A DNA stretch of 64,000 nucleotides. It comes from Bacteroidota bacterium. Lineage in GTDB: Bacteria; Bacteroidota; Bacteroidia; 2-12-FULL-35-15. The position numbers and the translations under genes were made by a program. A model generated the notes under the pieces. That model did no database searches, was not told the DNA's origin, and saw nothing but the letters and a program-made list of their open reading frames with translations. Location: the NCBI GenBank assembly GCA_025963715.1, contig JAOQAG010000008.1, forward strand, positions 23,907 through 87,906. Direction: 5' to 3'. Positions 5,330 through 57,237 of this stretch are shown here, piece by piece. How positions within the stretch are numbered: the stretch's first letter is position 1; every line of letters begins with the position of its first letter.

Positions 5330-5396
5330 TTTTTTGAATGAATTATAAATGATGAATTATAAATGTGTGTTGGTTTTCAATTGTGATTCGTAATTA

Positions 5397-5600
5397 CACA
5401 CCCCTAACCCCTCTCAATGGCTCCTACGCTGAAGCTTCGGCGCAAGCGTAAGGGGAATTGATCCTGCTCACAATCTTAATTGATATACAGATTTGTAAAT
5501 TCCTGCCCGACTGCGTCATTCAGGCGGGTGTATTTATTTGTAATTTGTAACCACCCAGATTCGTAATATTCGTTCCTGTTCGTTATCTGTACCACGTTAT
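5397..5600. repeat. Composite intergenic repeat family B, copy 1
   Basis: Shares blocks cacccctaacccctctcaa, ggggaat.gatcctgc, ctgcccgactgcgtcattcaggcggg and cgttcctgttcgttatctgta with 19413-19555 and, inverted, 41540-41760. Confidence 0.8.
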
Positions 5601-5627
5601 CCGTAACCCAAATATACTACACAAATT

Positions 5628-6713
5628 TTAAAAAAGTGTAAGCGTTTTTTTTACCGGTTTTTTCCGTACTTCCAGGTAATTTTCGATCAAACGCGGAACG
5701 GCATATTTTTCCAGATCCTTTTGTTTGATCACAATAGCGTTGGCCGGAATAATTTTTTCGAGCACAGCTTCCGTTTCAATTTCCCAAAAACGGGCAAAAA
5801 TTTTCTGATGACTCAGGATGTGCTTATAATAAGGAGAAACCGACCTGATCGTGAATTTATTTTTCCCCAGCAGTTTTTTCCATCCTGCCGATTTTAAAAA
5901 TTCCTCTTCCTGCAATTCCATTTCGGTTTCCAATAATGGAAAATCGTACAAATTGGTCCAGATATCCTTTGCTTCCCGTTTATTGATCACGGTACTTCCT
6001 TTGTGATCCAATACAATATAATTAAAATAACGGTTCCGCACTTTCGTTTTTTTTGATTTTACCGGCAACTCCGCCACCACTTTTTTTGCAAAAGCATAAC
6101 AATGGTTTTTCATCGGGCAAACCGGGCAATCGGGATTTACCGGCTTGCACATCATAGCGCCAAACTCCATGATCGCCTGGTTGTGAGTGCCCGGATCTTT
6201 TTTATCCAGCAATTCGTTGGCCAGCGCATTGAATTCTTTTTTGCCGGTTGTACTGTCGATAGGCGTTTCTATACCAAATACACGCGCCAGTACCCTGTAC
6301 ACATTGCCATCCACCACCGCATGCGGCTTATTAAATGCAAAGGATGAGATCGCGGCAGCGGTATACTCGCCTACACCTTTCAGGGAAAGGATCTCCGCGT
6401 ATTCTGAAGGAAATTTTCCTTTAAAATCAGCATTCACCATTTTGGCTGCCGTATGCAGGTTCCGGGCACGGGAGTAATAGCCCAGGCCTTGCCAGAGTTT
6501 CATTACCGTGTCGTTTTCCGCTTCCGCGAGATGTTTTACCGTAGGAAATTCACGGGCAAACTTTAAATAATAAGCCATTCCCTGGTCCACCCGGGTTTGC
6601 TGCAGGATGATCTCCGAAAGCCAGATCAGGTAGGCGTCGTTGGTATTCCGCCATGGCAGATCGCGTTTATTTGCACGATACCATTGGGTTATTATACTCG
6701 AAAAGTGCTTCAT
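5628..6713 (-). CDS. mutY: A/G-specific adenine DNA glycosylase
   Basis: HhH-GPD domain, 4Fe-4S cysteine cluster (CKPVNPDCPVCPMKNHC) and C-terminal NUDIX-like domain. Confidence 0.9.
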   Translation of the reverse strand: MKHFSSIITQWYRANKRDLPWRNTNDAYLIWLSEIILQQTRVDQGMAYYLKFAREFPTVKHLAEAENDTVMKLWQGLGYYSRARNLHTAAKMVNADFKGKFPSEYAEILSLKGVGEYTAAAISSFAFNKPHAVVDGNVYRVLARVFGIETPIDSTTGKKEFNALANELLDKKDPGTHNQAIMEFGAMMCKPVNPDCPVCPMKNHCYAFAKKVVAELPVKSKKTKVRNRYFNYIVLDHKGSTVINKREAKDIWTNLYDFPLLETEMELQEEEFLKSAGWKKLLGKNKFTIRSVSPYYKHILSHQKIFARFWEIETEAVLEKIIPANAIVIKQKDLEKYAVPRLIENYLEVRKKPVKKTLTLF

Positions 6714-41447: not shown

Positions 41448-41539
41448 CGGAAGAACCGTAATTCATACAAAGTTTATAAAAATAGCGTGTAGTGCTTTGG
41501 AGTTCAGGCAGATGTTATCAATAACGGAAAGTGAATAAG

Positions 41540-41760
41540 TTTAGTATTACGGATAACGCCCGCCTGAACGATTCGGGCAGGAACAGGAACGTCCTTCGAC
41601 AAACTCAGGATGACAACGAATCTGCGTAGAGCCAACGAATAACGAATTTTAACGAATAACGAATCTGCGTAGGGTACGGGTAACAGGAACGAATATTCCC
41701 CCCGCCTGAATGACGCAGTCGGGCAGAAATCTGTGTGGATGGGGTGTATGATGGAACGCG
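41540..41760. repeat. Composite intergenic repeat family B, copy 3 (inverted)
   Basis: Contains reverse complements of tcatcctgag.ttgtcgaaggacgttcctgttc, ctgcccgactgcgtcattcaggcggg and aatattcgttcctgtt. Confidence 0.8.
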
Positions 41761-41930
41761 TATTTGGCAGATGTAACGGATAAAGGCGGATATTGAACCA
41801 CAAAAGAAAACAAAAGGACTCAAAAGAATTGGATGTAACATACCAACGTGAATTCCTTGATAGGCGAGGTAAGTAAAGCCTTTGCGCTTTTCTTTGCGCC
41901 TCTGCGACTTTGCGGTTATTTTTTAGCAAA

Positions 41931-41972
41931 CACAGCAAACTTTGAACTTTCAAACTTTAAACTTTGAACTCC
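41931..41972. repeat. SAE element copy abutting the stop codon (41974-41976) of the rluB-like gene
   Basis: cacagcaaactttgaactttcaaactttaaactttgaactc. Confidence 0.85.
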
Positions 41973-41973
41973 C

Positions 41974-52631: not shown

Positions 52632-52716
52632 AAAACAGGTTTCTAAAAAAAGTATATCTTTATAATTGCATTCAGGAAGGTTTTCCGGATGCAATTTTTA
52701 TTTTAAACCAACCACG

Positions 52717-54873
52717 ATGAAAAAAGGATTTTTAATTATTTCGGCTTTTATCGCGCTGACGCAGATAGCTGTTGCGCAAACAAAAATGCTGACGATGGAA
52801 GAAGCTGTTGTGAAACAAAAAACAACGCTTGCTCCCTCCAAACTTGCGCAGCTGATGTGGGTAAAAGGCAGCACTACCTATTCTTTTATTGATAAACAAA
52901 ATCCGGAAGAAATGCTGGCGACCGGAAGCGCCGATAATACCACTGCGAAAGAGATCCTGAGCTTAACGCAACTGAATACTGCATTGAGCACAGTGAACCA
53001 GAAAGCGATGAAAACGTTTCCGGTGATCACCTGGAAAAATGATAAACAATTTACGTTTGAAGTTGATAAACAATTGCTGAGCTACGACCTGGATGCAAAA
53101 AAAGTAACGGTGGAAGCCACTCGTGATTTTGGCGATGGCGCGGAGAATACGGATGTTGCTAACAAAACAAATTATGTAGCGTACACTGTAAACAATAATT
53201 TGTTTGTGTATGATGGAAAAAATAACCTGATCGTGACGAATGATAAGGATGAAAATATTGTGAACGGAAAATCGGTACACCGTGAAGAATTTGGCATTGT
53301 GAAAGGAACATTCTGGTCGCCAAATGGCAATTTACTGGCGTTTTACCGCATGGATCAAACAATGGTAACGGATTATCCGATCATCGACTGGACTACCCGC
53401 CCGGCTACAAATCACAATATTAAATACCCGATGGCCGGTGATAAAAGCCATGAAGTAACGGTTGGAATTTACAATGTGAATACAGGTAAAACGGTGTTCC
53501 TGAATACCGGTGAGCCGAAGGAGCAATACCTGACGAACATTGCCTGGAGCCCGGATGAACAATTTGTTTACATTGCTGTTTTGAACCGCGAACAAAATCA
53601 TTTGAAATTAAATAAATACAGTGTGGCAAGCGGACTGATCGAAAAAACATTGTTTGAGGAAACTAATGATAAGTATGTGCATCCAACGCATACGATGGTA
53701 TTTTTACCGACCAATCCCAATCAATTTATCTGGCAAAGCGAACGCGATGATTACAATCAGTTGTATTTGTATAGCGCCGATGGTAAGCTGATCAAACAAT
53801 TGACAAAAGGCAATTGGGTGGTAACGGATTTCGCAGGATTTGATAGCAAATGTACACGGGCCTTTTACACGGCAACAACTGAAAGCGGCATCACGCGTAA
53901 TTTTTACAGCGTAGATCTGAAAAAAGGAAAGATCACACGCATCACACAAGGCGACGGTACACATACGGCAACGCTGAGCAGCAACGGAAATTACATTCTT
54001 GATAATTTTCAAAGCACTTCCGTTCCGCGGAATATTTATGTGATCCCGACAAACGGAAAAGCTGCAAAACAAATTTATACGGCCGCAAACCCGCTGGCAG
54101 ATTATAAACTGGGAAGCATGAGCATTTTCACATTAAAAAGTGATAACGGCGATGACTTGTATTGCCGGTTGTTTAAACCGGTAGATTTTGATGAGAATAA
54201 AAAATACCCAACCATTGTTTATTTATACAACGGCCCGAATGTGCAGATGGTGAACAATACCTGGAATGGTGGTGGCGACCTGTGGTTCCAATACATGGCG
54301 GAACACGGGTATGTGGTTTTTACGATGGACGGAAGAGGCAGCTGGAACCGCGGATTGGCTTTTGAACAGGCGTCATTCCGGCATCTGGGGGTTACGGAAA
54401 TGAAAGATCAGATGGTGGGTGTTGATTTTTTAAAAAGTCAGAAATACGTGGACGCAAGCCGCATGGGCTTATTTGGCTGGAGCTTCGGCGGATTTATGAC
54501 CACCAGCATTATGACGCGTTACCCTGATGTGTTTAAAGCAGCGGTAGCGGGTGGCCCGGTGATGGACTGGAGCTATTATGAAGTGATGTATACGGAGCGT
54601 TACATGGATACGCCGCAGGAAAACCCCGACGGTTACAAGGAAGCGCGCACGATGAATTACATTGATAACCTGAAAGGGAAATTAATGCTGATCCATGGAA
54701 CGCAGGATCCGGTGGTGGTTTGGCAGCAAAGCATTATGTTTTTGAAAGCTTGTGTGGATAAAGGAAAACAGGTGGATTATTTTGTATACCCGGGGCATGA
54801 ACATAATGTTTTGGGGAAAGACAGGCAGCAATTGTATCAGAAAGTGACGGATTATTTTATGCAAAATTTGTAA
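52717..54873 (+). CDS. S9 family serine peptidase (dipeptidyl-peptidase IV-like: beta-propeller + alpha/beta hydrolase)
   Basis: Signal peptide MKKGFLIISAFIALTQIAVAQ; catalytic GWSFGG, later D and H (IHGTQDPVV, GHEH). Confidence 0.85.
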   Translation: MKKGFLIISAFIALTQIAVAQTKMLTMEEAVVKQKTTLAPSKLAQLMWVKGSTTYSFIDKQNPEEMLATGSADNTTAKEILSLTQLNTALSTVNQKAMKTFPVITWKNDKQFTFEVDKQLLSYDLDAKKVTVEATRDFGDGAENTDVANKTNYVAYTVNNNLFVYDGKNNLIVTNDKDENIVNGKSVHREEFGIVKGTFWSPNGNLLAFYRMDQTMVTDYPIIDWTTRPATNHNIKYPMAGDKSHEVTVGIYNVNTGKTVFLNTGEPKEQYLTNIAWSPDEQFVYIAVLNREQNHLKLNKYSVASGLIEKTLFEETNDKYVHPTHTMVFLPTNPNQFIWQSERDDYNQLYLYSADGKLIKQLTKGNWVVTDFAGFDSKCTRAFYTATTESGITRNFYSVDLKKGKITRITQGDGTHTATLSSNGNYILDNFQSTSVPRNIYVIPTNGKAAKQIYTAANPLADYKLGSMSIFTLKSDNGDDLYCRLFKPVDFDENKKYPTIVYLYNGPNVQMVNNTWNGGGDLWFQYMAEHGYVVFTMDGRGSWNRGLAFEQASFRHLGVTEMKDQMVGVDFLKSQKYVDASRMGLFGWSFGGFMTTSIMTRYPDVFKAAVAGGPVMDWSYYEVMYTERYMDTPQENPDGYKEARTMNYIDNLKGKLMLIHGTQDPVVVWQQSIMFLKACVDKGKQVDYFVYPGHEHNVLGKDRQQLYQKVTDYFMQNL

Positions 54874-54902
54874 TTTCAGTATTGAATTTAAAAAAAACGA
54901 TC

Positions 54903-55712
54903 ATGGCAACAGCAGCAAAAATTAACTGGGAAGCGGCTTTTCAACCGCTGATCAAAAAATACAAAGGCAAACAGCATCCGCTGGATTATAAAAATACGTA
55001 CCAGCTGATGGTCATGGTGATCTTGTCGGCGCAGGATTCCGACCGGCATATCAACAGCCTGGCGGAGCCATTGTTCAAAGCTTTTCCAAACATGGAAGCG
55101 CTGGCGCGTGCCGATTACGAAGCGCTGATCCCTTTTGTAGGCAAGGTGCGCAACTCGGGTAATAAAATGAAATGGCTGATGCAGATCGCGCAGACACTTA
55201 AAACGGATAAAAGTATACCGCAAACACTGGAGGAATTAACGAAACTACCCGGTATAGGCCGTAAATCGGCGAACGTGATCCTGCGTGAAAGCGGCAAAAA
55301 GGCGGAAGGCATTATTGTGGATCTGCACGTGGTGCGTGTGGCGCCACGGATTGGCATAGCAACAGGCACCGATCCTAAAAAGATTGAGCAGCAGCTGATG
55401 GATGCATTACCACAGAAAGATTGGGGCGAAGTTGGGATGGCAATCTCGTTTTTAGGCCGCGAAACCTGCAGACCAACCGACCCGAAACATGCGGAATGTG
55501 TGATGAAAACGCATTGTGAGTATTTCAGATCAATGACAACTGGGAAGAAAGCACCATCTGAGAAAAAGGCGGCACCAGTGAAAAATGCAGCAGCAACGAA
55601 GAAGGTGGCGGTAAAAAAAATTGCCGCGAAGAAAAAAGCCGCACCGGCTAAAAAGACTGCAGTAAAGAAAAAAACAGCTGTGGCGAAGAAATCTGTGGGT
55701 AAGAGAAAGTAA
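54903..55712 (+). CDS. Endonuclease III-like HhH-GPD DNA glycosylase fused to a C-terminal histone H1-like Lys/Ala-rich tail
   Basis: HhH LTKLPGIGRKSANVIL with catalytic Lys, IVDLHVVRV Asp, only three Cys in the cluster region; C-terminal 75 aa KKAAPVKNAAATKKVAVKKIAAKKKAAPAKKTAVKKKTAVAKK. Confidence 0.7.
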   Translation: MATAAKINWEAAFQPLIKKYKGKQHPLDYKNTYQLMVMVILSAQDSDRHINSLAEPLFKAFPNMEALARADYEALIPFVGKVRNSGNKMKWLMQIAQTLKTDKSIPQTLEELTKLPGIGRKSANVILRESGKKAEGIIVDLHVVRVAPRIGIATGTDPKKIEQQLMDALPQKDWGEVGMAISFLGRETCRPTDPKHAECVMKTHCEYFRSMTTGKKAPSEKKAAPVKNAAATKKVAVKKIAAKKKAAPAKKTAVKKKTAVAKKSVGKRK

Positions 55713-55805
55713 AAAAGCTAAATTTGCAGGCGCAGATTTTAACACGGAGAGCACAGAGGAGAAGAGAGCTGCACGGAGATCGCGCCTGAATTTATATAAA
55801 TTATT

Positions 55806-55940
55806 GGTTTCGTAGTTCAACGCCCGCCTGCGCGAAAAGCGCATTCGGGTAAAGATAGAATAGAAGTTTACTAAACTTTTGATCCCAGTTCCCTGCCCGA
55901 ACGTGCTTTTCGCACGGGCGGGGATTCTGGTGGACGAGAC
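55806..55940 (+). repeat. tRNA-Arg-derived pseudo-tRNA copy A carrying two ~30-bp hairpin insertions (D-loop after position 17; T-loop after position 56)
   Basis: ggtttcgtagttcaacg[cccgcctgcgcgaaaagcgcattcgggtaaa]gatagaatagaagtttactaaacttttgatcccagttc[cctgcccgaacgtgcttttcgcacgggcgg]ggattctggtggacgagac; the inserts are near reverse complements of each other. Confidence 0.8.
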
Positions 55941-55965
55941 AAAAAAAAGGACGATTGAGAAGAGG

Positions 55966-56211
55966 ATGATGTACTATGCATATGTTTTAAAGAGTTTAAA
56001 AGACGGTTCATTATATAAAGGACATTGTGAGAATATTGAAATACGACTGAAACAACATAATAGCGGAAAAACTCAATCTATTTCTGGTAAACTTCCTTTT
56101 GAAGTAACATATTTTGAGAATTTTGAAACGCGTGAAAATGCAATTGCCAGAGAAAAATATTTTAAAAGCGCTGCTGGCAGACGATTTTTGAAACAAAAAT
56201 TAAATTTATAA
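55966..56211 (+). CDS. Free-standing GIY-YIG nuclease family protein (YhbQ/UPF0213-like, 81 aa)
   Basis: MMYYAYVLKSLKDGSLYKGHCENIEIRLKQHNSG...VTYFENFETRENAIAREKYFK: GIY-YIG, conserved Arg, His-Asn and Glu motifs. Track start 55879 lies inside the pseudo-tRNA copy A. Confidence 0.8.
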   Translation: MMYYAYVLKSLKDGSLYKGHCENIEIRLKQHNSGKTQSISGKLPFEVTYFENFETRENAIAREKYFKSAAGRRFLKQKLNL

Positions 56212-56216
56212 ACATT

Positions 56217-56273
56217 GGTTTAATAGTTCAACGCCCGCCCGTGTGAAAAGCAGGTTCGGGTGAAGATAGAATA
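56217..56273 (+). repeat. Partial tRNA-Arg-derived copy B (5' half only) with the same D-loop hairpin insertion
   Basis: ggtttaatagttcaacg[cccgcccgtgtgaaaagcaggttcgggtgaa]gatagaata, starting 6 nt after the GIY-YIG stop; upstream flank aatttata.aa.att shared with copy A. Confidence 0.75.
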
Positions 56274-56288
56274 AAAGTGTAAAATTAT

Positions 56289-56360
56289 TGGTTTCGTAGT
56301 TCAACGGATAGAATAGAAGTTTCCTAAACTTTTGATCCCAGTTCGATTCTGGGCGAGACC
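56289..56360 (+). tRNA. tRNA-Arg (anticodon CCT)
   Basis: Manual cloverleaf: acceptor ggtttcg/cgagacc (one G-U), D-stem gttc/gaat, anticodon stem gaagt/acttt, loop ttCCTaa, 4-nt variable loop, T-arm cccag ttcgatt ctggg, discriminator A; CCA not encoded. Confidence 0.8.
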
Positions 56361-56511
56361 ACAAAAGCCTCACAGAAATGTGGGGCTTTGTACTTAATAG
56401 TGAATATTTCACAACATTTAAGCTAGTTACCATATATCATAATAAGAAACACCAAAGTAGTATTCAGCAGGTTTCTGTCTTTTTTTACTTTTATCTTGAA
56501 AAACAAGTATA

Positions 56512-57237
56512 ATGAAACATCTAATAATCTTTCTTTTTCCTTTGCTGATCATAAGTTGTAATACAGATCAGAAAACGAAAGACGATCGGAGAAAAACGAG
56601 TTTAAAGCCAGAAGGTTTTATTAAAAATCAGGTTTTACTTACTAACTATGCAACATTTAAAGGCGGACAGTCATTGAATGGTGCAAGCGCATTTTTGATT
56701 GAATATAAAAACACTGTTTATGCTGTTACCGCTAAACATTTAATTGGAGAAGCCGGAGGTGTTACACCGGAGGTAAATCAAACAGCACTTTCAACAGAGT
56801 TATTAAGTTGGAAAATGTTTCCACGTGTACCTATCGATCCTTCAAGAGATACCGTAGTTGTAAATGCAACACATTTGAACTACCAAAAAAACAAAAGCGA
56901 CGCTTTATTGCTTAATACAATAAGTAATCATTCCAACATTAAACCTTTGATACCGTGTTTTAACATACCCACCACAGGAGATTCGTTGTTCCTAATAGGT
57001 TGCCCTTACAGCGAGACAGACTGTAAGCAAAACATTTACAAAGCTCTTTTTTTAAACGTTGAGCAAGGTTTTTTGAGATGTGAAATAAAATTTAATATCG
57101 AAATGGCTGGTTTTAGCGGGGCACCATTATTAAATAGCGAAGGACAAGTAGTAGGAATTATTTATGGCGGTGGAGAATCTGATGGTAAAAATTATATTTT
57201 AGCAACCCCTATAAATGAAATTCAATCCATAGAATAA
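56512..57237 (+). CDS. Trypsin-like (S1/S1C-fold) serine protease lipoprotein
   Basis: Lipobox LIISC; His region AKHLIG, Ser region GFSGAPLLNSEGQVVGII. Confidence 0.65.
   Translation: MKHLIIFLFPLLIISCNTDQKTKDDRRKTSLKPEGFIKNQVLLTNYATFKGGQSLNGASAFLIEYKNTVYAVTAKHLIGEAGGVTPEVNQTALSTELLSWKMFPRVPIDPSRDTVVVNATHLNYQKNKSDALLLNTISNHSNIKPLIPCFNIPTTGDSLFLIGCPYSETDCKQNIYKALFLNVEQGFLRCEIKFNIEMAGFSGAPLLNSEGQVVGIIYGGGESDGKNYILATPINEIQSIE

Follow-up and report, generated by a model that had tools for sequence, protein, structure and literature searches.

A 246-bp open reading frame (ORF) for a GIY-YIG nuclease, located in a 64-kb stretch of DNA of a Bacteroidota bacterium (contig JAOQAG010000008.1; the whole analysed stretch of 64,000 nucleotides (nt) is called the window below), lies between interrupted copies of a tRNA-Arg gene. 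Our analyses give good support to the conclusion that this locus is one instance of a three-part module, composed of a minimal GIY-YIG gene of the Slx1/UPF0213 type, head-to-tail copies of a single-codon tRNA-Arg gene of which one is intact, and GC-rich palindromic mini-inserts of 20-90 nt, a family that we named PAL and that interrupts the spare copies mainly at the tRNA elbow. It is likewise well supported that the tRNA copies of the module sit on both sides of the ORF and that they carry the anticodon CCT or CCG, rarely TCG, and once belong to tRNA-Gln.

The tRNA-Arg locus of the window and its counterparts in Bacteroidota

The locus in the window comprises the following features:

55798-55805 (+): 8-nt upstream flank AAATTATT, recurring at 56282-56289 directly before the intact tRNA
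55806-55940 (+): copy A, a full-length pseudo-tRNA-Arg, from alignment to the intact tRNA
55823-55853 (+): D-loop PAL of copy A, CCCGCCTGCGCGAAAAGCGCATTCGGGTAAA, between linear nt 17 and 18, corresponding to canonical G18^G19 (AACG^GATA)
55892-55922 (-): T-loop PAL of copy A, minus strand CCCGCCCGTGCGAAAAGCACGTTCGGGCAGG, between linear nt 55 and 56, corresponding to canonical C56^G57 (TTC^GATT)
55966-56211 (+): GIY-YIG nuclease ORF, 246 bp, 81 amino acids (aa), catalytic domain only (PF01541, E = 4.3e-13, residues 2-72)
56217-56281 (+): copy B, a 5' partial pseudo-tRNA-Arg, from alignment to the intact tRNA
56234-56264 (+): D-loop PAL of copy B, CCCGCCCGTGTGAAAAGCAGGTTCGGGTGAA, from a hairpin pattern search
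56290-56362 (+): intact tRNA-Arg(CCT), called by ARAGORN as the sole tRNA of the whole window
56366-56391 (+): GC-rich hairpin GCCTCACA-GAAA-TGTGGGGC followed by TTTGT, read directly from the sequence

The alignment of copy A to the intact gene showed that the two differ mainly by two exact 31-nt insertions, which divide copy A into the tRNA-derived segments 55806-55822, 55854-55891 and 55923-55940. In addition, copy A carries ACT in place of the anticodon CCT and has a degenerate 3' end (CTGGTGGACGAGACA vs CTGGGCGAGACCA in the intact tRNA), the T-stem and the 3' acceptor strand being affected. Copy A was called by neither ARAGORN nor Rfam and was still not called by ARAGORN after in silico removal of the inserts; its predicted fold is very stable (-65.1 kcal/mol, z = -7.0). 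Copy B corresponds to nt 1-17 of the tRNA with two mismatches (nt 6-7), followed by its PAL and by degenerate sequence from nt 18 to about nt 34. The two PALs of copy A lie in opposite orientation and are 85% complementary to each other, and complementarity between the D-loop PAL of copy B and the T-loop PAL of copy A reaches 93%, which gives an inverted repeat flanking the ORF. The ORF is separated from copy A by 25 nt and from copy B by 5 nt. Since AAATTATT precedes both copy A and the intact tRNA, the locus can be read as a segmental duplication with a unit of about 484 bp. The narrow hairpin motif and the 5' 17-mer of the tRNA were each found three times in the window, as compared to expected numbers of 0.00 and 0.17, respectively.

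The identity of the intact tRNA was confirmed by Rfam, where RF00005 scored 61.7 bits at 56290-56361 in a scan of 55300-56900 that gave no other match at curated thresholds; miRNA and snoRNA matches from an Rfam E-value search were discarded, as they merely reflect the long inverted repeat. The intact tRNA is identical by eye to that of the Chitinophaga locus L001 (labels of this type denote the individual loci of the comparison). A preliminary description, made from the sequence alone, had placed the intact tRNA-Arg(CCT) at 56289-56360, which is off by 1-2 nt. The 246-bp ORF with its two spacers, copy A with one hairpin in the D-loop and a second one of opposite orientation in the T-loop, the anticodon change to ACT, and a 5' half-copy with a D-loop hairpin upstream of the intact tRNA (our copy B) had also been proposed there, and all of them were recovered by the domain match and the alignments reported here.

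Recurrence of this arrangement was examined by scanning one genome per species, which identified 542 places encoding a relative of the ORF, and by analysing the best 80 of these. ARAGORN called exactly one intact tRNA-Arg on the same strand in 75 of the 80 loci, with the anticodon CCT or CCG, and TCG in one locus; the other five comprised one locus with a tRNA-Gln and four without a tRNA. Cultured carriers of the module include Niastella yeongjuensis DSM 17621 (L005), Algoriphagus confluentis (L035) and Agriterribacter humi (L078). Most of the intact tRNA-Arg genes abut the ORF, as the tRNA typically ends 9-19 nt before the start codon or begins -10 to +6 nt from the stop codon, and in 32 of 81 ORFs the stop codon is formed by the tRNA's own U8-A9-G10. 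Nearly every locus also contains extra copies of its own tRNA, broken at recurrent positions and otherwise identical, and in the commonest architecture PAL is present on one side of the ORF only. Relics resembling copy B were observed directly 5' of an intact tRNA-Arg in L012, L010, L215, L232, L253, L267 and L315. Moreover, tandem arrays of the ORF with an interrupted tRNA (period of about 330-430 nt) were found in L010, L035, L052 and L059, and tandem arrays of a 5' half-tRNA with an insert in L010 (five units, 133 nt) and L012 (three units, 78 nt). The related genomes thus held the same inserts in the same tRNA context with the same ORF adjacent, in agreement with the preliminary description.

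As an independent check, metagenomes were scanned for the junction between D-loop and PAL alone, resulting in 140 matches on 120 contigs. A GIY-YIG ORF was present on the same strand within 400 nt of 97 of the 140 matches, and of 54 of the 78 for which the contig left room. Some of the matches without an ORF were chance hits in GC-rich DNA outside tRNA genes, and others were relics, in the form of a PAL-bearing 5' half-copy directly 5' of an intact tRNA-Arg without an ORF (as in copy B), an interrupted copy placed after an intact tRNA, or a decayed C-terminus of the ORF. Exactly one intact tRNA-Arg was found in 32 of the 34 metagenome loci with 1 kb of room on both sides. The position of the ORF relative to tRNA-Arg is fixed, and loci that have PAL-bearing relics and no ORF exist as well.

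A few loci deviate from the common pattern. In Maribellus luteus (L047:1355-2010), a member of the ORF family follows an intact tRNA-Gln(TTG). Behind the ORF there is an incomplete copy of tRNA-Gln, whose homology starts at the D-loop and takes in the terminator, and two long tandem PALs are situated in the variable loop of this copy; the module is consequently not strictly tied to tRNA-Arg. On the complete chromosome OZ245766.1 of Chryseolinea sp. (L006:1380-1890), no intact tRNA-Arg is present within 1.5 kb of the ORF, and the sole tRNA-Arg(CCT) copy near it is interrupted by a 65-nt PAL and has a mismatched 5' acceptor strand. A metagenome-assembled genome (MAG) of Sphingobacteriales (L059:480-1880) has at least four copies of the ORF, several of them apparently disrupted (by eye) and each with a 3' tRNA fragment behind it that bears a T-loop PAL, and no intact tRNA in 3.2 kb, resembling a decaying amplification. 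Some MAG records with a locus of the Bacteroidota type (L004, L068) are labelled Vulcanococcus limneticus, Bosea thiooxidans or 'Burkholderiales' and are probably mis-binned or mislabelled.

Removing the catalogued inserts in silico raised the number of tRNAs called by ARAGORN from 78 to 112, and all but one of the new calls were tRNA-Arg with the anticodon of the respective locus. Nevertheless, the interrupted copies are, as judged from their sequences, not working tRNAs. In 19 interrupted copies of equal length to the intact one, 38 of the 45 differences fall in nt 1-7, the 5' acceptor strand that overlaps the last codons of the ORF, corresponding to 38 differences in 133 positions (~29%), which are uncompensated, while nt 8-73 of the same 19 copies contain seven differences in total. 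Gene conversion over the shared segment, and not selection on a second tRNA, is what leaves such a pattern of a mismatched acceptor stem next to sequence identical to the functional gene.

The palindromic inserts and the nuclease

PAL has a characteristic layout of 5'-CCCGCC, a variable inner stem-loop usually with CG at both ends, a TTCG or GTCG bulge, and GGCGGG or GGACGG(G)-3'. Short forms of 20-36 nt and long forms of 60-90 nt, the latter with an AT-rich interior, have the same termini, including 8-bp inverted repeats (CCCGCCCG/CGGGCGGG), and doublets and triplets occur at single sites. Both orientations were seen at both main sites by eye, as automatic orientation calls are unreliable for such near-perfect palindromes. 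The catalogue from the related loci and the window contains 118 inserts, 79 of which follow nt 17, while 15 follow nt 55 and 11 follow nt 49/50; the remaining ones occupy a few other positions, one of them inside an anticodon. In L001 and L002 the PAL follows nt 21 and not nt 17. The 28-mer CCCGCCCGGCTGACGCCAGTCGGACGGG occurs 34 times in D-loop context and is identical in nine genome loci, the adjacent ORFs of which show 67-98% nucleotide identity (mean 72%). Covariation of the inner stem was 0.137 as compared to 0.074 in shuffled alignments, none of 500 shuffles reaching the observed value, and compensatory changes (GC, AU and CG) were present at one pair. We conclude that PAL is a conserved element and not debris.

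Outside tRNA copies PAL is rare, with about five copies in approximately 0.9 Mb of scanned Bacteroidota flanks, three of which are in the window. The window has six copies altogether, three at the tRNA locus and the following three, which were detected by a looser pattern search:

5502-5528 (strand unassigned): PAL-family copy CCTGCCCGACTGCGTCATTCAGGCGGG in an intergenic short-repeat mosaic, no tRNA context
41559-41581 (strand unassigned): PAL-family copy CCCGCCTGAACGATTCGGGCAGG in a second intergenic repeat mosaic
41701-41727 (strand unassigned): PAL-family copy CCCGCCTGAATGACGCAGTCGGGCAG in the same mosaic as the preceding copy

Similar hairpins had been indicated in the preliminary description at about 5498, 41548 and 41701, and they proved to be members of the same family. 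The copy at 5502-5528 is nearly identical to the T-loop PAL of L055, and the copy at 41701-41727 is close to the PALs of L003 and L040. The statement that PAL occurs only in tRNA copies, which was based on the narrow pattern, was consequently dropped for this genome. The two mosaics (5330-5628 and 41448-41973) consist of short repeated motifs, for example GTAACAGGAACGAATAT, AATCTGCGTAG, TTACGGATAACG and the complement of TTACGGATAACG, and the PALs embedded in them are the only ones of the window outside tRNA context. The closest relative of the PAL variant of the window is the T-loop PAL of L004 (CCCACCTGGCAAAAGCCATTCGGGTAAA).

No target-site duplication was found at the D- or T-loop PAL sites, nor was an autonomous parent found; a non-tRNA PAL at L224:3865 with GATTGTG on both sides is the sole case resembling a target-site duplication. 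A scan of viral contigs for CCCGCCCG-N8-30-TTCGGGCGGG mostly returned terminators of GC-rich phages, and its two PAL-like matches (L108, L182) had no tRNA or GIY-YIG gene nearby. The preliminary description had considered a tRNA-derived repeat of the short interspersed element (SINE) or miniature inverted-repeat transposable element (MITE) type that had accumulated a miniature hairpin insertion. The second half of this proposal agrees with our results, as the hairpins are a conserved miniature palindromic insertion family at recurrent tRNA positions; the first half does not, as the tRNA copies are local tandem duplicates kept identical to the neighbouring gene and not dispersed SINEs or MITEs.

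The ORF has 563 detectable homologues, nearly all of them 78-84 aa long and from Bacteroidota, and Y6, Y17, G19, R27, H31, N32 and E51 are invariant in 43 sequences. The AlphaFold2 model (pLDDT 94.9) has a beta-beta-alpha-alpha-beta-alpha topology. Comparing the family profile with PDB gave the UPF0213 proteins EF2693 and BH0048 (1ywl, E = 2.1e-10; 1zg2, E = 3.3e-9) and a weak match to SLX1 (E = 0.0064), and Foldseek aligned the model with the nuclease domain of Slx1 at template modelling (TM) scores of 0.68-0.72 and a root-mean-square deviation of 2.1-3.1 A, as compared to TM scores of 0.52 for I-TevI and 0.43-0.46 for UvrC. By sequence and predicted fold we therefore place the protein in the Slx1/UPF0213 branch of GIY-YIG nucleases, as opposed to the I-TevI and UvrC branches. 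It is a single domain without residues beyond the catalytic part, and thus without a DNA-binding module or a RING/zinc-finger. PHROG 314, annotated as 'homing endonuclease', matched weakly (E = 4e-5) and across the catalytic part only, and no NCBIfam or PADLOC model matched the protein, which gives no hint of a named family or of a defence system.

The ORF is under purifying selection, with dN/dS of 0.03-0.18 among close, in-register pairs of its relatives (out-of-register pairs, with an amino acid identity below 0.1, were discarded). Phage and plasmid collections contained no close relative of the ORF, and no vehicle was found. In a rough tree of the ORFs, CCT and CCG loci are intermixed, as are loci with the intact tRNA upstream and downstream, and some taxonomic coherence is visible. 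In L004:660-1860, three GIY-YIG ORFs are arranged in series, each after a 3' fragment of tRNA-Arg(CCT); the first belongs to another small GIY-YIG subfamily (39% identity to the ORF of the window over 46 aa), suggesting that several nuclease lineages share the same site.

The hairpin at 56366-56391, which was not called by a simple terminator scan, is from its sequence likely to terminate transcription of the tRNA and ORF unit. An endonuclease III-like gene (HhH-GPD, E = 5e-16; 54882-55712, +) lies immediately upstream, and its product has a Lys/Ala-rich C-terminal tail of about 70 aa (...KKAAPVKNAAATKKVAVKKIAAKKKAAPAKK...) resembling histone H1-like DNA-binding tails. This gene (nth) is absent at L001 and L002. 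A DPP-IV-like peptidase gene (52666-54873) lies upstream on the same strand in the window and downstream on the opposite strand in L001 and L002 of Chitinophaga (77-81% aa identity), indicating that the tRNA/ORF segment has been inverted relative to this neighbour between these relatives.

A proposed resident nuclease cassette and alternative explanations

The explanation that we favour, with a confidence only a little above the midpoint, is that the module is a persistent selfish nuclease cassette resident in tRNA-Arg genes, where it drives local duplication and gene conversion, the spare copies being disabled by PAL. An ORF that starts 9-19 nt after the 3' end of a tRNA or overlaps or abuts the 5' end of one leaves no room for a promoter and is thus probably read from the tRNA promoter, in which case it would be expressed as part of a tRNA-ORF-tRNA transcript. 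The nuclease would cut or nick tRNA-Arg DNA at AAT(G/C)^GA, a core that the D-loop has on its top strand and the T-loop on its bottom strand. When such a break is repaired by recombination with a neighbouring or sister copy, tRNA segments would be duplicated together with the ORF, giving rise to tandem arrays and to 5' half-copies such as copy B, and the same repair would keep nt 8-73 of all copies identical and allow the cassette to move between CCT and CCG genes. We count the intermixing of CCT and CCG loci in the ORF tree in favour of such movement. Copies split by PAL could no longer be cut and would offer no long uninterrupted homology for deletion of the ORF, and would therefore persist and accumulate, while translational selection would keep one copy free of PAL. 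In the window, copies A and B would be the disabled copies and 56290-56362 the retained gene. The cassette would thus be a selfish element of long standing that is passed on mostly by vertical descent, or it may have been domesticated. As tRNA-Arg(CCU) and tRNA-Arg(CCG) each read a single codon and are partly redundant where an isoacceptor with U34 exists, this redundancy may make their genes tolerant hosts.

A lead on the cut site is provided by SegB, a phage GIY-YIG endonuclease which cuts inside tRNA genes and prefers the motif RAWTSGAAC (PMC13096335, 2026). One short motif, read on opposite strands, is shared by the two main PAL sites, CAATG^GATA in the D-loop (top strand) and GAATC^GAAC in the T-loop (bottom strand), with AAT(G/C)^GA as the common core. 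The T-loop site matches the SegB motif in nine of nine positions, with PAL between S and G, and the D-loop site in six of nine in the same register. Being an analogy across GIY-YIG branches, this match indicates a candidate cut site. The preliminary description had listed a homing-type cassette in a duplicated tRNA target among its options, and of these it comes closest to the comparative evidence, as members of the ORF family are nearly always joined to copies of tRNA-Arg; its weaker side is that the protein is a bare domain without a DNA-binding module and that homing would have to be presumed.

Several observations weigh against the selfish-cassette explanation. The cut site is suggested by the positions of PAL and by the analogy to SegB, which is from a different GIY-YIG branch and has DNA-binding domains that are absent here, and about 20% of the PAL sites are without the AAT(G/C)^GA core. 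The intact tRNA keeps both putative sites and would thus be a target in the cassette's own genome, which would be tolerable only with low expression and efficient repair. An insert that simply blocks a site would have no need of a constant sequence, yet the conservation of PAL exceeds that of the ORF, indicating a specific role outside this model, which also leaves the origin of PAL and its entry into DNA unexplained. Finally, classical horizontal homing is weakly supported, given the taxonomic coherence in the ORF tree and the absence of close relatives of the ORF from the phage and plasmid collections.

Given these gaps, PAL and the nuclease may alternatively be partners comparable to repetitive extragenic palindromes and their associated tyrosine transposases (REP/RAYT). 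The nuclease would then recognise an extruded PAL hairpin or cruciform and mobilise or copy it, PAL being the mobile unit that flanks its nuclease gene, in the way that REPs flank RAYT genes, and the redundant tRNA copies the nearest tolerated landing sites. The closest structural relatives of the protein are indeed structure-specific nucleases (Slx1, TM 0.72), and PAL, a conserved hairpin whose arms are preserved and whose stem covaries, is found in either orientation, can be doubled or tripled in tandem, and has short and long forms with shared termini in the fashion of MITEs; the PALs of the window moreover flank the ORF as a 93% inverted repeat, and three others lie in its non-tRNA intergenic DNA. 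We still consider this partnership unlikely. With about five copies outside tRNA copies in approximately 0.9 Mb, PAL is not a dispersed high-copy family like REP, it is found on only one side of the ORF in the commonest architecture, and target-site duplications are lacking. GIY-YIG enzymes are hydrolytic nucleases, and since we know of no strand-transfer chemistry among them, insertion would need ligation or repair by the host. A similarly low probability is assigned jointly to two versions of a more far-reaching proposal, in which PAL and the 81-aa Slx1-like nuclease are a previously unrecognised kind of genetic element. Either the nuclease would spread the 28-nt hairpin specifically to AAT(G/C)^GA at the elbow of tRNA genes, or break-induced gene conversion would act as a switch that moves PALs between tRNA copies and so turns a single-codon tRNA-Arg, the decoder of AGG or CGG, on and off. 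If true, either version would account both for the stronger conservation of PAL relative to the ORF and for the retention of exactly one intact copy.

Three further explanations appear still less probable. The spare tRNA copy could be a domesticated device for expression or processing, serving as the structured 3' or 5' end of the mRNA of a nuclease with a host function, such as processing branched or hairpin DNA. The PALs would then block RNase P and other tRNA-processing enzymes at the elbow, as RNase P would otherwise cut 7 nt before the stop codon of an ORF that ends in tRNA nt 8-10. That the stop codon has this position in 32 of 81 ORFs fits the idea, and so do the two dominant PAL sites, as G18/G19 and C56/G57 are the D- and T-loop nucleotides that form the tRNA elbow, together with the strong purifying selection, the partial taxonomic coherence of the ORF tree and the absence of copies on phages and plasmids. 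In L021, L039, L063 and L068, however, where the intact tRNA lies downstream, the ORF overlaps a fully functional tRNA by 10 nt, showing that disarming is not required; the PALs in upstream 5' half-copies, tandem arrays and ORF-less relics, as well as the conservation of PAL, are left unexplained, and no known function links a bare GIY-YIG domain to tRNA-Arg, so that we regard such a device as quite improbable. It is very improbable that the interrupted copies function as RNA, either as intron-like tRNA genes from which PAL is removed or as tRNA-like non-coding RNAs with elbow extensions, the latter having been an option of the preliminary description. The inserts are precise and their removal restores 34 cloverleaves, they lie in loops or helix junctions as non-canonical archaeal tRNA introns do, nt 8-73 are nearly identical to the functional gene, and copy A has a stable predicted fold. 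Yet about 29% of the positions in the 5' acceptor strand differ without compensation, and in copy A the anticodon is altered and both the T-stem and the acceptor stem are broken. PALs are moreover found in either orientation and at more than one position, they form multimers and also lie outside tRNAs, and Rfam matches the intact tRNA only. Inspection of the PAL junctions revealed no bulge-helix-bulge or 3-nt bulges, the junctions lying at the base of a continuous GC helix, and no EndA-like gene is present at the locus. The intact copy that is nearly always next door would be needless if the interrupted copies worked, and its almost constant retention, together with the damaged and unrestored copy A, argues against both the intron-like and the non-coding RNA explanation. 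An intron-like function was rejected on the presence of one intact copy in genomes and metagenomes and on the divergence of nt 1-7. Lastly, the locus might be a collection of unrelated debris, consisting of decaying tRNA pseudogenes, a hitch-hiking small ORF and hairpins that are terminators or chance palindromes. Copies A and B are degenerate in the window, and hairpins of the generic form CCCGCCCG...CGGGCGGG are frequent terminators where DNA is GC-rich, but at least 75 of 80 independent loci show the three-part arrangement, which also came up in the search seeded by the junction, the inserts have fixed positions and form one sequence family, and the ORF is under purifying selection. This last explanation is hardly credible, being already contradicted by the recurrence, the insert positions and the conservation of PAL.

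Significance and comparison with known systems

Standard annotation reports loci of this kind as a 'GIY-YIG nuclease family protein' beside a 'tRNA-Arg' and misses the interrupted copies. With at least 542 places encoding a relative of the ORF in species-representative genomes, the module is a common and unrecognised feature of a major phylum, and no description of a GIY-YIG/tRNA-Arg/palindrome module in Bacteroidota was found in the full-text literature, the coverage of which excludes most subscription journals. Should the selfish-cassette explanation be true, nuclease-driven amplification of tRNA genes would be extended from phages (SegB, 2026) to bacterial chromosomes, with a much smaller enzyme of another branch. 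Our results also provide candidate substrates, namely tRNA-Arg DNA and/or the 28-nt hairpin, for the large UPF0213/YhbQ-type group that has no assigned function. In addition, bacterial tRNA genes with precise, intron-like inserts at the elbow are relevant to tRNA gene finders and to the origin of interrupted tRNA genes, and a minimal nuclease with a defined short DNA partner may be of practical interest.

The best sequence and fold matches of the protein are to Slx1 and UPF0213 (YhbQ-type) proteins, and the catalytic residues are conserved. Slx1 proper, however, has a C-terminal RING/zinc-finger and the partner Slx4, whereas the protein studied here has neither a RING/zinc-finger nor an Slx4-like partner. 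To our knowledge, no linkage to tRNA genes or palindromes is known for Slx1 or UPF0213, and a literature search on YhbQ and GIY-YIG found no paper. Archaeal tRNA genes with multiple introns likewise have short inserts at several positions, including the D- and T-loops, the exact removal of which restores the cloverleaf, but the loci described here are bacterial, lack a bulge-helix-bulge and EndA, and combine an intact gene with interrupted copies whose acceptor stems are broken. Tiny GC-rich palindromes that insert into genes and spacers of AT-richer genomes, sometimes in tandem and with broad targets, are represented by mitochondrial GC clusters, ultra-short invasive elements (MUSE) and Rickettsia palindromic elements; PAL, in contrast, is almost confined to copies of one tRNA type beside one nuclease family. 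PAL has the inverted termini of a MITE and is without the target-site duplication and the autonomous parent. With REP/RAYT systems the module shares short conserved palindromes with a covarying stem that flank a single nuclease-type gene, inherited with the genome and under selection. The enzyme is nevertheless a GIY-YIG nuclease and not an HUH Y1 transposase, REPs exist as hundreds of extragenic copies while PAL is rare outside tRNA copies in the scanned flanks, and PAL has no end tag of the GTAG or CGTC type that is found on REPs (PMC3733652).

The Seg/I-TevI-type homing endonucleases combine a nuclease with sequence-specific DNA-binding modules, which are absent here. Mobile endonuclease ORFs of organelles, such as the GIY-YIG ORF in Allomyces atp6, insert together with a duplicated part of the target gene, resulting in one functional copy and a displaced pseudogene fragment, and GC-rich double-hairpin elements occur near such insertions. 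Their targets are mitochondrial protein-coding genes, in contrast to the bacterial tRNA gene of the present module, where the duplicates are homogenised by conversion and contain the hairpins at fixed positions. SegB is a protein of about 220 aa with DNA-binding modules. It belongs to phages, while the protein of the present module is chromosomal, 81 aa long and Slx1/UPF0213-like, and neither palindromic inserts nor a rule of one intact copy is described for SegB. The likeness lies in a GIY-YIG gene among tRNA genes, in the T-loop motif, and in the tandem arrays of ORF and tRNA copy, which resemble the segmental amplification of a tRNA gene with segB that is driven by SegB nuclease activity and homologous recombination (PMC13096335). 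No favoured tRNA isotype was reported for SegB (PMC13096335), while the module is found almost exclusively with tRNA-Arg. In conclusion, the locus fails at least one defining feature of each system compared, and its arrangement is apparently undescribed.

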